A stretch of 64,000 nucleotides of DNA from Nitrososphaeraceae archaeon (GTDB lineage Archaea; Thermoproteota; Nitrososphaeria; Nitrososphaerales; Nitrososphaeraceae). This document shows, one piece after another, positions 51,659 to 57,539 of this stretch. Positions within the stretch are counted from its first letter, which is position 1, and each line of letters starts with the position of its first letter. A model generated the notes under the pieces. The model had not been told where the DNA came from. It saw nothing but the letters and a program-made list of their open reading frames with translations, and made no database searches. The translations under genes and the position numbers were made by a program. The stretch is taken from contig DATFEP010000058.1 of NCBI GenBank assembly GCA_035250975.1, forward strand, positions 13,723 to 77,722, in the 5' to 3' direction.

Positions 51659-52222
51659 TTATTTCTCCACAAGAGATGACGTGAATTTTACGGGGACGAT
51701 TGCATCATTTATCGTATTATTCTCAAGAACAATATTGTCTACTAGGATAGTAAGATTTCCTCTATATTCATTAAAGTTGACATCATAAAATCCTCTGCCA
51801 TTTAATGCAGTTTGATTGATTTTCTTCCACAACTCATCACCTTGAGAATCATAAATAATTAGGTCAAAATTTTTAATCGGAACTACTCTCTCCAATGTTG
51901 AGGGAACAGACAATCCCCAACTTCCTAACGTATCTCCTGTATTATTTGACTCCATTGGAGATATAGTTTCCGTAGTATGTTCTGGCAGTGTTCCATTCAA
52001 AAAAGCGATTTCTATTGGAAAATTATTTACATCATGAGATGGAGACGATTTCAATTGAATATTAAGAATGTCATCTGTTGAATTCTTTTGTAAAACTGGT
52101 GACTTCAGCTCCCACATTTCTACCTCTTCCGATCCAGCAAACGCAGAATGGAACGCAAAGGTTGACCACACGGCAAAAATACTCAAAACTAGACATAAAA
52201 ATATCGATTGCATATAAATCAA
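51659..52222 (-). CDS. Secreted protein of unknown function
   Basis: Signal peptide ends AFA; beta-rich. Confidence 0.75.
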   Translation of the reverse strand: MIYMQSIFLCLVLSIFAVWSTFAFHSAFAGSEEVEMWELKSPVLQKNSTDDILNIQLKSSPSHDVNNFPIEIAFLNGTLPEHTTETISPMESNNTGDTLGSWGLSVPSTLERVVPIKNFDLIIYDSQGDELWKKINQTALNGRGFYDVNFNEYRGNLTILVDNIVLENNTINDAIVPVKFTSSLVEK

Positions 52223-52587
52223 TATTCAACATTCAATATAACCATTATATTTGTTAAATAATCTTGCTAGATTTTATTACGTATATAAATTATCAGATAG
52301 CTACAAGATTACATTTTTTATTATGAATACTTTACATTTAGGACTAAAGACTGTCAATCGATAAAGATCAAATGAATTATTATGATTAGCTTTTGGCGTT
52401 GATTTCTTGATAATATCACATTGAAATGTAAAGAATTAGTAATCCATAATATATAAATTTTAGATCTTTTTTCCATTATTTTTAAGAAAAATTGCACATT
52501 GTAATTAATGTAATTTTTAGAACAACCTGTTTTCCTAAAAAATACATATATTTTTATTCATTTAAGTTCTTATTCTCTGAATTTTTC

Positions 52588-52840
52588 ATGTAGTTATAAC
52601 AACGACTTTCCAGGAATCTTCTATTGTTGCCTTCGCTATTAGGAAAAATCCGGAACAGTTGTTTAAACAGATGACCTTATCCGTATTTGTTATAACTTAT
52701 TTAAACGATAAGGCCTACTTTCGTTTACCCAAACAAATAGTCCAAGTTTTGACTCCGTTCCTTGTGACTAGGGGAGAAGGCAAGCCAAACACGGAGTTGG
52801 CTAACGCCTTCTGTTAAAATCAGATATCTGTGCGTGTACA
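52588..52840 (-). ncRNA. Candidate large structured ncRNA with kissing loop/pseudoknots (family not recognised)
   Basis: Several stems plus loop-loop complementarity; G.U pairs favour the minus strand; GC-richer than its flanks; no ORF. Confidence 0.55.
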
Positions 52841-53050
52841 TTTTCAAGGCATAAAAAAGAATTGAAAAATATACCTATTTAGTTTTTATCACATTACTCT
52901 TTAATACAGGTTGGTAAATTCATTTTACTTCAAATTAGATCAAACTATAATTCGAGAAGATTAGAATTAATTGAGTCATTTTAAATCGTTCAAACAATGG
53001 CAAATTAAAAATAATATATCTTAAAATAAAATATTAATAAAAAAAATTGT

Positions 53051-53248
53051 TTAAACAGAATCTCTATCGGATTCTGTTTCATCTACTGTTTCAGCAGCTT
53101 CTGCTCTCAAATTCTCTGCCGGTCCAGTTGTCGAAGGATCAGACTCTGCTGCTCCTACTTCGTTTTGATCATTTTGAATAGAATCTAAATCTTCGTCTTT
53201 TTTAAATCTTTTATCTTGGTTGTTCTTTTCAGAATATATATCACTCAT
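53051..53248 (-). CDS. Small acidic hydrophilic protein
   Basis: EVGAAESDPSTTGPAENLRAEAAE; TTTATAA box upstream. Confidence 0.75.
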   Translation of the reverse strand: MSDIYSEKNNQDKRFKKDEDLDSIQNDQNEVGAAESDPSTTGPAENLRAEAAETVDETESDRDSV

Positions 53249-53437: not shown

Positions 53438-54445
53438 TTATTCATCTAGCAATAATTGAAGCTCTGCTGGAGAAGGTTCTGTTTTTCTTTCGTATTTTGC
53501 AGATAGCAGTGTTGACGGTAATTTCAACCATATATAACTACCATCGTAATTCACAATATGCTTTTTTGGGATATAATACATATGAACATTCACAACTCCA
53601 TCCCTCACTATTAGGACATCGTTACCTACTCGGTCCACGTCACCCACGTCGACATCGTCGCTAGCTCTCACTTTTTTATGGATAACCTCTTCCCAAGGCA
53701 CATCTAATAATTCCTTGGATTTGTTTTCGCCCTGGACTTCTATGCCCGGCTCTTTTGCCATAAATGGTATTAATTCAGAATAGTCACCTTTTTCATATGA
53801 CAAATCAGATTCTAGGGGCGGACTGTCTCTTTCATATTTGGATTCGATTTCGTCCTTACTGAGAGATGAGTATACATGTTCACCATCATATTCTTTGAGA
53901 TATTTTTTTGGAATAAAATATCTATTCTTGTGGACTAATCCCTCTTCAACTTCAACAAAATGTTGGGCAACGCTCTTGATTTCTCCGACCTCTTTATCAT
54001 CGCTGGTTTTTACTTCCTTATTCAATAGCTCAGTCCAGCTCACACCCATCTCCTGTTTTGATACTGATTTTCCACCCTGGGAGTTCAGATTTTCTGTTTT
54101 TTCATAGCGAGGATGAATTCCTTGGTTGAAATCAGGATATTTTTCTTCAACATACGCCTTTCTTTCTTGGTACGATACATCGTCAATAAAGACGTCGGAT
54201 GTAGGAGGATGATCTTGATTTTGAAATTTTTCTTTGACTTCATTCTCTGTTAAAGAAATCCAAACATCGTCACCATCATAACTGTCAAAATAATACTTTG
54301 GTATAAAAAAATGGTCCTTCCCTATTGTTCCTTTTTCGACCTCAACAAAATGATTTAATACATTTTTTATTTTTCCTAAATCTCTATCATCAACAGATTT
54401 TATTTTTTTGTCTTTCGCTTTTTCCCATGAAAGATTAACTACCAA
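53438..54445 (-). CDS. Protein with three tandem PRC-barrel-like (DUF2171-like) repeats
   Basis: 3x W..(V)..K.V.(S).D..(D/E).G...G.....IPK.....YDG...(W/Y). Confidence 0.85.
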   Translation of the reverse strand: MVVNLSWEKAKDKKIKSVDDRDLGKIKNVLNHFVEVEKGTIGKDHFFIPKYYFDSYDGDDVWISLTENEVKEKFQNQDHPPTSDVFIDDVSYQERKAYVEEKYPDFNQGIHPRYEKTENLNSQGGKSVSKQEMGVSWTELLNKEVKTSDDKEVGEIKSVAQHFVEVEEGLVHKNRYFIPKKYLKEYDGEHVYSSLSKDEIESKYERDSPPLESDLSYEKGDYSELIPFMAKEPGIEVQGENKSKELLDVPWEEVIHKKVRASDDVDVGDVDRVGNDVLIVRDGVVNVHMYYIPKKHIVNYDGSYIWLKLPSTLLSAKYERKTEPSPAELQLLLDE

Positions 54446-55202: not shown

Positions 55203-57539
55203 TTAATTCACAATATGCTGATTAATAGGTAAAGTGAACACAAAATTTGCCCCTTTACCATTTCCATTATTCTCACCCCATATTTTGCCCCCGTGAGCTT
55301 GAACAATATTTTTAGAGATATACAATCCAAGGCCAGTTCCTTTTTCGGATCTAGTTACGAATTTTTTAAACAATCTCGGTAATATCGTTGGATCTATTCC
55401 TTTACCAGTATCTTGGATACTAATTATTATTTGACCCTCCGGACGATTTTTTATTTCAGTAGTTATTGTACCGTTCTCTGTAAACTTATAAGCGTTGCTT
55501 AATAGATTAGATACTACTTGCTGTATTCTATTTTTGTCTGCATGTATCGATAGTTTGTCTCTTTCTCCTTTGTCATCATCTAAATTACAATCTTTATTAT
55601 TATCATTATAGACTAATCTAAAATCATTATTATTTTTATTTCGGGATTTATTTGTAAAATCGTTTATTGTTTCTTTGATCAAATCATATATGTCGAATTG
55701 TTCCTTTTCTAGTTTTAAAGTATCGCTTTCGATTCTTGCTATCTCTAAAATGTGTTCTGTTAATCTATAAAGCCTTTCTGAATTTCTATCTAAAGGATCC
55801 AAGTACTTTTTAAAGTTTTCCGGTCTCATTTTTATCAGTTCCATATATCCTACTATCGACTGTGTTGGTGTCCTAAGTTCATGAGCTGCTATATTGATGA
55901 ATTCCTTTTGCATCTTATCATGAACTTGAAGTTGCTCATTTGCTTCTGTAAGTCTTTTATTTATTGTTGTAATTTCTTCGAGTGCTTTTTTTAGGTCAAT
56001 CGTGGCATCAGAAAGTTCCTCATTTGTAGTTCTTATATTTTCAAACAACTTCTTTTGTCTCCAAATTGTATCAAAAATAGAAATATATGAAAAAATTGTT
56101 GATTTTGCATTTGTGTATGTTGCAGATCCTATTGCTCGCCAGACCTCTTTTTGAGAATCGTCTTTTGTTTCTATCGCCAAAAGTTTTTTTCTATCCACAA
56201 TAACACAAGTCGTTTTAATTTTTGTAACAGATTCAATTTTTTTAAATTCAATATTCAATTTTTGTTTGTGACTTTTTTTATTCTTATTTGTCTCTAAAAT
56301 ATTCTTTATTCGTTGATCTACAATCTTATTAGTAGGAGTCAAGACTCTAAAATAAAATTTTGTATTAATACCATTTCTTATATTTACATTTGATCTTTTA
56401 GTGAGGGTTTCCCAAATTTTTAGATTATATTCTCTAAGAAATGCATTTACAGACGGCAAAATTAATAAAACCTCAAAGGTAGCATTGTTAATAAGCTTGA
56501 ATAGCAACTCTTGAGTCTTGTGTGTATTTTCTATTATTTGTGTAAATTCTTCCTCCTGATATTCTTCTTTACCCCGTTGCATATGGGATTTGACATCGTT
56601 TACCCTTAGAGAACCATCCAAACCTCGAGTCCAAAAATCTTCAAAAACTTTTTTATATTGCTTAAGTAAATTTGGCTCATTAGTAATAATAATATTTTGG
56701 GATGATTCATTATTTGTAAAAAAAGGATCCATAAAAATACTAACCATGTAGTCAGATATTATAAAATTTAGTGGAGGAAGCATATTTGAATGTTTTATCT
56801 GTATTCCACTATGAAGAAATTTTTCAGCCCAACGAACATTGTTCTTATTTATGGATGAGATGTATCTAATATTTCTAAAATTTAATTCTCCATGATTTTT
56901 AAATGCACACTCTATTATGACAGACGTATATTTAGATAAATTTTTAGCGTCAAGTCTAGGTAAATATATATCCAATTGTTCAGAAACATTATAATCTGTT
57001 TTAAAAAATGCTAAAGCCTGCGTTAGAGATTTTACCCGTTTGAAGTAGAATTCATCTCCTTTTTCCTGGATCTCTTTTCTTTCCTCGTTGATATCTCTCG
57101 CGTTCATCCACAGAGTTTCAAAAATATGTTCCTGTTTTTTTAATATCTGTTTTGTCTTACTATATAAGAATGGAGCAAAAATAAAGTATGAAGATATTGC
57201 TCCAATATTACAAAGAATTTCATTCTCATTTAGTACTAAAGCGTCAACAATATTGGGCAAATGTCTTACTTTTGCGACGGGCAAGAATTGTTTAACATAT
57301 AATAAATTCTCTTTTTTTATTTTTGTAATGTACCTAATCTTCACTCCTCTTTCGTAAGCTTGTTTACAACTATTCAATAAATGGTTTTTATGAGAAGAAT
57401 CCTCTAGAATATGATGACTTATACAAATATCTAGTTTTTCAGATGCGTTTTGTATTACATCTTCTATTCTTTTTAAAATATCTTCTTTTCCTTTTATAAT
57501 TTGTGTTTCAAAACAAATATTGGTTTCAATACTTCTCAT
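55203..57539 (-). CDS. Cytoplasmic sensor histidine kinase with repeated N-terminal sensory domains
   Basis: No TM segment; three related segments ending FETLW/FEDFW/FDTIW; AAHELRTP, NLLSNAYKF, DTGKG, GTGLGL. Confidence 0.94.
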   Translation of the reverse strand: MRSIETNICFETQIIKGKEDILKRIEDVIQNASEKLDICISHHILEDSSHKNHLLNSCKQAYERGVKIRYITKIKKENLLYVKQFLPVAKVRHLPNIVDALVLNENEILCNIGAISSYFIFAPFLYSKTKQILKKQEHIFETLWMNARDINEERKEIQEKGDEFYFKRVKSLTQALAFFKTDYNVSEQLDIYLPRLDAKNLSKYTSVIIECAFKNHGELNFRNIRYISSINKNNVRWAEKFLHSGIQIKHSNMLPPLNFIISDYMVSIFMDPFFTNNESSQNIIITNEPNLLKQYKKVFEDFWTRGLDGSLRVNDVKSHMQRGKEEYQEEEFTQIIENTHKTQELLFKLINNATFEVLLILPSVNAFLREYNLKIWETLTKRSNVNIRNGINTKFYFRVLTPTNKIVDQRIKNILETNKNKKSHKQKLNIEFKKIESVTKIKTTCVIVDRKKLLAIETKDDSQKEVWRAIGSATYTNAKSTIFSYISIFDTIWRQKKLFENIRTTNEELSDATIDLKKALEEITTINKRLTEANEQLQVHDKMQKEFINIAAHELRTPTQSIVGYMELIKMRPENFKKYLDPLDRNSERLYRLTEHILEIARIESDTLKLEKEQFDIYDLIKETINDFTNKSRNKNNNDFRLVYNDNNKDCNLDDDKGERDKLSIHADKNRIQQVVSNLLSNAYKFTENGTITTEIKNRPEGQIIISIQDTGKGIDPTILPRLFKKFVTRSEKGTGLGLYISKNIVQAHGGKIWGENNGNGKGANFVFTLPINQHIVN

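Follow-up and report, generated by a model that had tools for sequence, protein, structure and literature searches.

The window analysed here, a stretch of 64,000 nucleotides (nt) from a Nitrososphaeraceae archaeon (assembly GCA_035250975.1, contig DATFEP010000058.1), contains an intergenic element at 52588-52840 that a first-pass annotation had described as an unannotated structured RNA of about 250 nt. Our analysis indicates that the part at approximately 52728-52812, together with a loose tail, is probably a stand-alone gene whose product is a small, structured non-coding RNA (ncRNA). The RNA is encoded on the plus strand and belongs to a new family; it probably has its own TATA-type promoter and would act as a kissing-loop scaffold. 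The two arms of this RNA and the 7-base-pair (bp) helix between their loops are under strong purifying selection, the unpaired loop residues included. The folded core of the element was confirmed and its left two thirds were not; the initial observation is partly confirmed and its interpretation partly supported. The idea of a large RNA of about 250 nt did not hold, as only the region of approximately 52728-52812 and its unconstrained tail behave as RNA.

In many soils ammonia is oxidised mainly by members of the Nitrososphaeraceae, and to our knowledge very few ncRNAs are known from them beyond ribosomal RNA (rRNA), transfer RNA (tRNA), signal recognition particle (SRP) RNA and ribonuclease P (RNase P) RNA. 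Roughly 70% of the genomes sampled from the family carry the RNA described here, with up to six paralogues in each. It has a tertiary contact that is backed by covariation and no entry in Rfam 15. It presents RNA biologists with a new fold to probe and research on ammonia-oxidising archaea with a candidate regulator or component of a ribonucleoprotein (RNP). The covariance model can be used directly for annotating these genomes.

A kissing-loop RNA family of the Nitrososphaeraceae

In the window the folded core consists of two hairpins. Hairpin B, the arm P2 (52738-52770), is built from the stem UAGUCCAAG / CUUG-U-GACUA (52738-46 with 52761-70) and carries the 14-nt loop L2, UUUUGACUCCGUUC. 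The linker GGGG (52771-52774), which is GGG in the alignments of the relative G019, leads to hairpin A, the arm P3 (52775-52812). This arm contains the outer stem AGAAGGC / GCCUUCU (52775-81 with 52806-12), the inner stem AGCCAA / UUGGCU (52783-88 with 52797-802) and the loop L3, ACACGGAG. Both hairpins are present as they had been described in the first-pass annotation, and all of their pairs are standard. The complementarity of the two loops, described at first as 52753-58 with 52791-96, is real and extends to 7 bp, with the half ACUCCGU of L2 at 52752-52758 and the half ACGGAGU of L3 at 52791-52797.

The element was used as a BLASTN query against 61 genomes, which comprise its own, 24 of the same genus and 36 others of the family and order. 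It is single in its own genome (G000). Of the 24 others of the genus, two (G019 and G016) contain it, and it was not found in the 36 further genomes. An exact-pattern scan of genome contigs returned the same two relatives and no others, and a scan of metagenome contigs added one true homologue, the fourth copy (L018). Two near-identical GC-rich metagenome contigs (L016 and L017) that show the two-loop pattern were rejected as chance matches, in which the motifs form an ordinary hairpin stem. The core at 52738-52812 is 99-100% identical between the window and the three relatives, with 74-75 of its 75 positions kept. Hairpin B is invariant among the four close homologues, and hairpin A shows one substitution, at 52805 in a bulge. 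The corresponding identities are 83-94% in the promoter region (52675-52727), 62-80% in the left part (52588-52674), 68-82% in the tail (52813-52850), and 74-91% and 63-84% in the flanks at 52520-52587 and 52851-52900, respectively.

By sequence search alone, the element therefore looked like the orphan that it had been taken for. A covariance model of hairpins B and A, built from the four close copies (R1), gave full-length matches in other genera, in which both loop motifs are kept and the stems are rewritten. The subsequent model R2, built from 20 sequences and again without the kissing helix, recognised the RNA in 105 of 151 sampled Nitrososphaeraceae genomes, which represent 16 of 18 genera, with one to six matches per genome and more than 170 matches in total. 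The 105 genomes include two unpublished ones (G081 and G119), without which the count is 103 of 149. One copy each was found in G120, G061, G144, G025, G078 and G088, whose assemblies are single contigs. In an order-level sample, R2 gave matches in 17 of the 23 genomes that belong to the window's family and in none of 127 genomes from 19 other families, a negative result that applies to the samples searched under strict filters. The window copy scores 90.5 bits against R2 (E 1.6e-20) and is the sole match in its genome; one family member per genome was likewise found in G016 and G019. The family motifs are UUUYNRYUCCGUUC for L2 and GCCAAAYACGGRRYUGGC for the L3 hairpin, and the window copy conforms to both (UUUUGACUCCGUUC and GCCAAACACGGAGUUGGC). 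Judged from these sequence comparisons, the element is a member of a new RNA family that appears to be specific to the Nitrososphaeraceae among the genomes searched.

Most family members are three-way junctions of about 115 nt, with the helices P1, P2 and P3 and with kissing between L2 and L3. P1 pairs the 5′ and 3′ ends, for example CCUGC with GCAGG, and the junctions read AAAA and UAUU. P2 is long and ends in CGG/CCG and a 16-nt loop. P3 is also long, has an A-rich internal loop (AAA opposite GAUAAUAG) and continues into the inner stem GCCA/UGGC, which is invariant in 43 sequences; the loop of the majority type has 10-11 nt. In a MAFFT alignment of 24 majority-type sequences that was made without regard to structure, the five helices together are paired in 92.7% of the cells and contain 23 pairs that changed on both sides. 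The values are 72.6% and six pairs for P1, 92.5% and five pairs for P2, 100% and three pairs for the kissing helix, 98.3% and eight pairs for P3, and 100% and one pair for P3b. None of 500 shuffles reached any of five measures, pairing fell to 33-48% when the partners were slid by 1-3 columns, and RNAalifold predicted P2 and P3 unaided.

The same picture was obtained with 43 sequences aligned to R2, in which all covariation measures beat the shuffles and the covariation score and the paired cells were matched by 0 of 500. Eight of the nine pairs of the hairpin B stem change on both sides in these family members, all seven pairs of the outer stem of hairpin A covary, and the L2 motif is kept family-wide. 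The kissing helix is paired in 98.7% of the cells. Covariation between the loops, proposed earlier as a check of the element, is found in both the 43 and the 24 homologues: three kissing pairs change on both sides, with the pair types GC (29 sequences) and AU (12) in one, CG (21), UA (18) and UG (3) in another, and UA (32), UG (8) and CG (3) in a third. The kissing loop is the best-supported feature of the element.

The window copy is a derived variant subtype without P1. Its type, common to G000, G016, G019 and L018, has short arms and the GGGG linker where the majority type has UAUU, and neither a conserved P1 nor the AAAA/UAUU junction was found in these four copies. A long-range P1 for the window copy (52731-40 with 52874-86), suggested by the minimum free energy fold, was discarded because it competes with hairpin B and L018 and G016 do not retain it. 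Types also differ in the loop 'code', which is ACUCCGU/ACGGAGU in the window and GUUCCGU/ACGGAAC, GCUCCGU/ACGGAGC or GUCCCGU/ACGGGAC elsewhere, and several types may coexist within one genome. One subtype, which has the long P1 UCUUCUGUAU / AUACAGAAGA and the loops GUCCCGU and ACGGGAC, is present as near-identical copies, several per genome, across genera. These copies retain the promoter and have unlike flanks, and they could have arisen by duplication or by some form of mobility. They were seen at L121, L124 and L147 (genome G100), L109, L112 and L114 (G162), L116 and L142 (G168) and L135 (G147). Scans of viral contigs gave no match at first and then one GC-rich phage tail contig, which R2 does not recognise, and no link of the RNA to viruses or mobile elements was found in them.

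The RNA corresponds to no known family. Rfam 15 at the gathering threshold gave no match in the whole window; with E up to 10, the region 52300-53100 gave chance matches only (Lnt, HIV_FE, DdR18, RAGATH-34 and U6), far below the cut-offs, and seven homologue loci gave none with E up to 0.1. The purine riboswitch model RF00167 did not match the window region (E ≤10) or the seven loci (E ≤0.1), no other Rfam riboswitch model matches the window or the homologue loci, and there is no Rfam match to self-cleaving ribozymes (hammerhead, twister, pistol, hatchet and others). A scan of the window with ARAGORN was negative for tRNA and transfer-messenger RNA. SRP RNA, RNase P RNA and 5S rRNA are over their cut-offs elsewhere in the genome (on C1, C89 and C1, respectively) and nowhere in the window; a canonical full-length SRP RNA lies on C1 of G000 (106.6 bits, model positions 1-317). 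Three further readings of the sequence were discarded. The apparent AUGAUGA of a C/D box covaries as a stem strand, a K-turn was considered from the sequence and dropped, and the 5S rRNA was found elsewhere in the genome. No account of this RNA turned up in the literature searched, supplementary ncRNA lists not included. As far as the accessible part of a report on a cultured relative goes, only SRP RNA and RNase P RNA are named as abundant ncRNAs (PMC13475601).

Strand, promoter and extent of the RNA

Pair 16/53 of P2 is G.U in 21 of 24 sequences, two P3 pairs are G.U in 8 and 10 sequences, and two pairs of the kissing helix are U.G in 8 and 3 of the 43 sequences. Since such pairs become A.C or C.A mismatches on the opposite strand, the RNA is encoded on the plus strand. 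The minus strand, which had been favoured initially, is contradicted by these pairs and by the TATA-like box upstream.

The promoter region (52675-52727) contains the TATA-like box TTATTTAAAC at 52697-52706, which is invariant in the four copies and lies about 26 nt upstream of 52728-52731, a spacing that is usual in archaea. TATTTAAA is also invariant in the four sequences. Family-wide, TATA-like hexamers are most frequent at 36-55 nt before the P2b anchor, and a hexamer at the equivalent distance is found in 70 of 99 loci, compared with 27 of 99 in the opposite-strand control. The RNA thus appears to have its own putative TATA-like promoter about 25-30 nt upstream of its 5′ end. A scan for bacterial promoters and terminators was uninformative for an archaeon.

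RNA-library contigs cover the core in all four soil or rhizosphere metatranscriptome runs, which come from three studies. They start at 52728, 52737 and 52742 in three runs of two studies, each mapping from its first base without a loose end. To the right they extend to 52870, 52890 and 52939, and in run X16 coverage is continuous from 52737 to 53100. No RNA contig lies to the left of 52728 in the four runs, which is a weak hint only. From the contig starts and the TATA spacing we infer a start at approximately 52728, followed by a short leader (52728-52737). The 3′ tail (52813-52890) is of uncertain length, with candidate oligo-T stops at 52841-44 (T4) and 52883-87 (T5). In run X19, a 287-nt RNA-library contig contains 57 nt identical to the core (52733-52789) between unrelated sequences on both sides, which could reflect a chimeric assembly or a paralogue in different surroundings.

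The flagged 253-nt stretch is a GC island with 36-47% GC compared with about 20% in the intergenic flanks, as had been reported. Its folding is also somewhat better than that of dinucleotide shuffles, with z -2.85 on the plus strand and -2.42 on the minus strand, and its left half alone reaches z -3.0 and -3.6 in the window sequence. The left segment (52588-52674) evolves at the background rate, being no better conserved than the adjacent intergenic DNA (62-80% compared with 63-91%), and it is not present in family members of other genera. The helices proposed for the left two thirds of the element are weakly retained. Stem C (52675-81 with 52707-13) exists in the window and encloses the TATA-like box, but two of its seven pairs break in the relatives without compensation. 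The 11-bp pairing of 52592-602 with 52687-97 is perfect in the window only; in the four sequences 77% of its cells are paired and no pair has changed on both sides. The long irregular hairpin has a base (52603-52615 with 52649-52661) that shows two compensatory changes and 87.5% pairing in the four sequences; it lies upstream of the promoter of the RNA, in the region that evolves at the background rate. Shuffles of the four-sequence alignment match the observed values in 56-122 of 500 cases. Nor are the palindromes conserved for which a possible role had been suggested; CAGATATCTG, GTTTAAAC and the first copy of GTTATAAC are all altered in the relatives. The left 140 nt or so would thus be promoter and background-rate intergenic DNA, which places 52588-52674 outside the RNA on present evidence; an RNA is not supported there.

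Gene neighbourhoods and possible function

We propose that the RNA is transcribed from the TATA-type archaeal promoter at 52697-52706 and that P2 (52738-70) and P3 (52775-812) would be locked side by side by the intramolecular kissing helix. The rigid, pre-organised fold could then be a platform to which a protein or small ligand binds, and the RNA would act in trans and not as the leader of an adjacent gene. Stable RNAs of RNPs have paired 5′ and 3′ ends and resemble the majority type in this respect. The surroundings of the RNA were assessed at 103 loci, 60 of them on the 3′ side only, by the first downstream open reading frame (ORF) of at least 70 amino acids (aa). This ORF is convergent at 60 of the 103 loci, lies on the same strand at 39 and is absent at 4. 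In the window, no plus-strand gene follows for more than 1 kb. Neighbours are conserved within genera only, and no partner gene is conserved across the whole family; the recurrent cross-genus exception is an association with Rieske proteins. In G016, an insert of 1.2 kb with a transposase fragment lies between the RNA and the 65-aa gene that follows it (53051-53248 in the window), and the RNA is unchanged. Because the RNA does not regularly precede a gene and is not affected by this insert, it is likely to be a stand-alone gene.

Several observations weigh against this explanation. A same-strand ORF starts within 300 nt at 22 of the 103 loci, so that a minority look like leaders. At two of them (L085 and L153) the 3′ strand of P1 runs into a Shine-Dalgarno-like AGGAG, and the ATG of a Rieske gene follows 16-17 nt after P1. 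The RNA-library contigs show no strand and, as RNA libraries can contain DNA, are a hint of transcription and not a proof; they also reach the 65-aa gene and could therefore derive partly from minus-strand read-through from it. An oligo-T run of at least 4, which could mark the 3′ end, follows within 60 nt at only 51 of 99 loci. The window variant, lacking P1 and UAUU, may be functionally diverged or decaying, although the 74-75 core positions kept in three relatives argue against decay.

The leader-like Rieske loci keep another explanation alive for part of the family, namely a riboswitch-like sensor of a metabolite or an ion that controls genes in cis, the gene-less copies being trans-acting or decayed aptamers. 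We consider it possible though not likely. Purine riboswitches and other 'tuning-fork' aptamers are three-way junctions closed by P1, with parallel arms and L2-L3 pairing. The majority type shares the P1-closed junction, the two arms, the Watson-Crick pairing of L2 with L3 and conserved junction residues (AAA/UAUU). It differs from the purine riboswitch in its length (about 115 compared with about 70 nt), in the 7-bp kissing helix, in the internal loops of its arms and in the lack of an Rfam match; moreover, the majority of copies do not precede a gene, and the window copy has no P1. A Rieske or Rieske-FMN-reductase gene is the first downstream ORF at 9 of the 103 loci in five genera. Four of these genes share the strand of the RNA and lie at +9 to +213 (L085, L153, L141 and L083), but five are convergent (L097, L098, L099, L102 and L107). 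A DAO-Rieske fusion is found among the other neighbours, and one genus has a divergent gene whose product, by reading of the translation, looks like a luciferase-like oxidoreductase. The convergent orientation of 60 first downstream ORFs, often within 30 nt, leaves no room for a regulated gene at these loci, and the window copy has another junction and no plus-strand gene downstream. A doubtful extension of this idea is a new class of ligand- or protein-sensing RNAs specific to soil ammonia-oxidising archaea, in which the junction locked by the kissing loops would respond to a redox or flavin-related signal. Such RNAs would act on Rieske/FMN-reductase genes in cis and, from the dispersed stand-alone copies, in trans, with loop codes that prevent cross-pairing of paralogues. 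An antisense action in cis on the 3′ end of the convergent neighbour, the 65-aa gene in the window, is unlikely. A convergent ORF within 300 nt at 38 of the 103 loci and the continuous contigs of X16 would suit it, as would the 71-74-aa membrane-protein gene that ends 11-25 nt past the RNA in the genus with the luciferase-like neighbour. However, the convergent genes are unrelated between genera, another genus having a gene that reads as transcription factor B-like in translation; the insert in G016 parts the RNA from the 65-aa gene without any change in the RNA; and selection acts on the folded core and not on the tail.

The first-pass annotation had considered a minus-strand RNA of about 250 nt, either ribozyme-like or a transposon guide or scaffold of the HEARO/omega RNA type. 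The folding energy of the 253 nt and of its left half and the two compensatory changes at 52603-15 / 52649-61 speak for it, but it is highly improbable in view of the background-rate evolution and restricted distribution of the left part, the loss of the long-range helix and of stem C in relatives, the performance of the shuffles and the G.U pairs, which exclude the minus strand. The only likeness to HEARO and omega RNAs is that of a structured intergenic non-coding RNA. There is no Rfam match, the strand is opposite to that of the RNA compared earlier, no genes for IscB, TnpB, IS110 or reverse transcriptase were found among the neighbours in the window, and none for IscB or TnpB in the homologous loci examined. 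Hardly any credence can be given to a DNA-level element, such as inverted repeats bound by a transcription factor, or to a small ORF. The stems double as DNA palindromes, and among close relatives the core does not vary even in its loops; contrary to the first description, a 52-aa ORF (52659-52817, plus strand) spans the core, and it is open in L018 too. Across genera, however, the sequence changes while the pairing stays, including G.U pairs, which would have no meaning in duplex DNA, and linker lengths across the family vary by non-multiples of three. The ORF is not coding, as a 1-nt deletion puts it out of frame in G019 and the stems within it covary.

Compared with other RNAs that pair their loops, the stand-alone kissing-loop RNA has partial counterparts. 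In the Alu domain of SRP RNA, helices 3 and 4 are joined by loop-loop tertiary pairs and closed by helix 5. Adjacent hairpins with pairing loops, an end-closing helix (in the majority type) and the nature of a stable, promoter-driven small RNA are likenesses to it; there is no sequence similarity, and the loops pair over a far longer stretch than those of the Alu domain, which form few tertiary pairs. The guanidine-II (mini-ykkC) and guanidine-IV (mepA) riboswitches are bacterial leaders with two hairpins whose conserved loops pair in a ligand-dependent contact, and with an expression platform. Unlike them, the RNA described here is archaeal, has no Rfam match and is usually without a downstream gene.

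Genes adjoining the locus

The RNA locus sits between two minus-strand genes, which encode proteins of 187 aa (51659-52222) and 65 aa (53051-53248). Pfam searches with seven neighbours in the window gave a DUF2171 match, a histidine kinase and a BRX_N match below the cut-off; the other four have no match. The product of the 65-aa gene is very acidic, nearly identical in G016, G019 and L018, and without a Pfam family. This gene has the highest RNA-contig depth of the stretch examined (about 77 in X16), and its stop codon is followed by a T8 run on the minus strand. The fragment in the G016 insert (L003:2366-2815, minus strand, 150 aa) corresponds to the helix-turn-helix part of a transposase only (HTH_32, HTH_33 and HTH_29). 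The 187-aa protein, which also has no Pfam family, looks secreted by reading of its sequence and is conserved in G016 and L018. In G019 its gene has apparently decayed to remnants (L002, about 960-1140), and the adjoining RNA is intact. Further along, the minus-strand gene at 53438-54445 encodes a 335-aa protein with an apparent internal repeat, as judged by eye, and the DUF2171 match at its C-terminal end, and that at 55203-57539, also on the minus strand, encodes the histidine kinase of 778 aa. DUF2171-like genes also occur near members of the RNA family in two genomes of another genus (L064 and L105).

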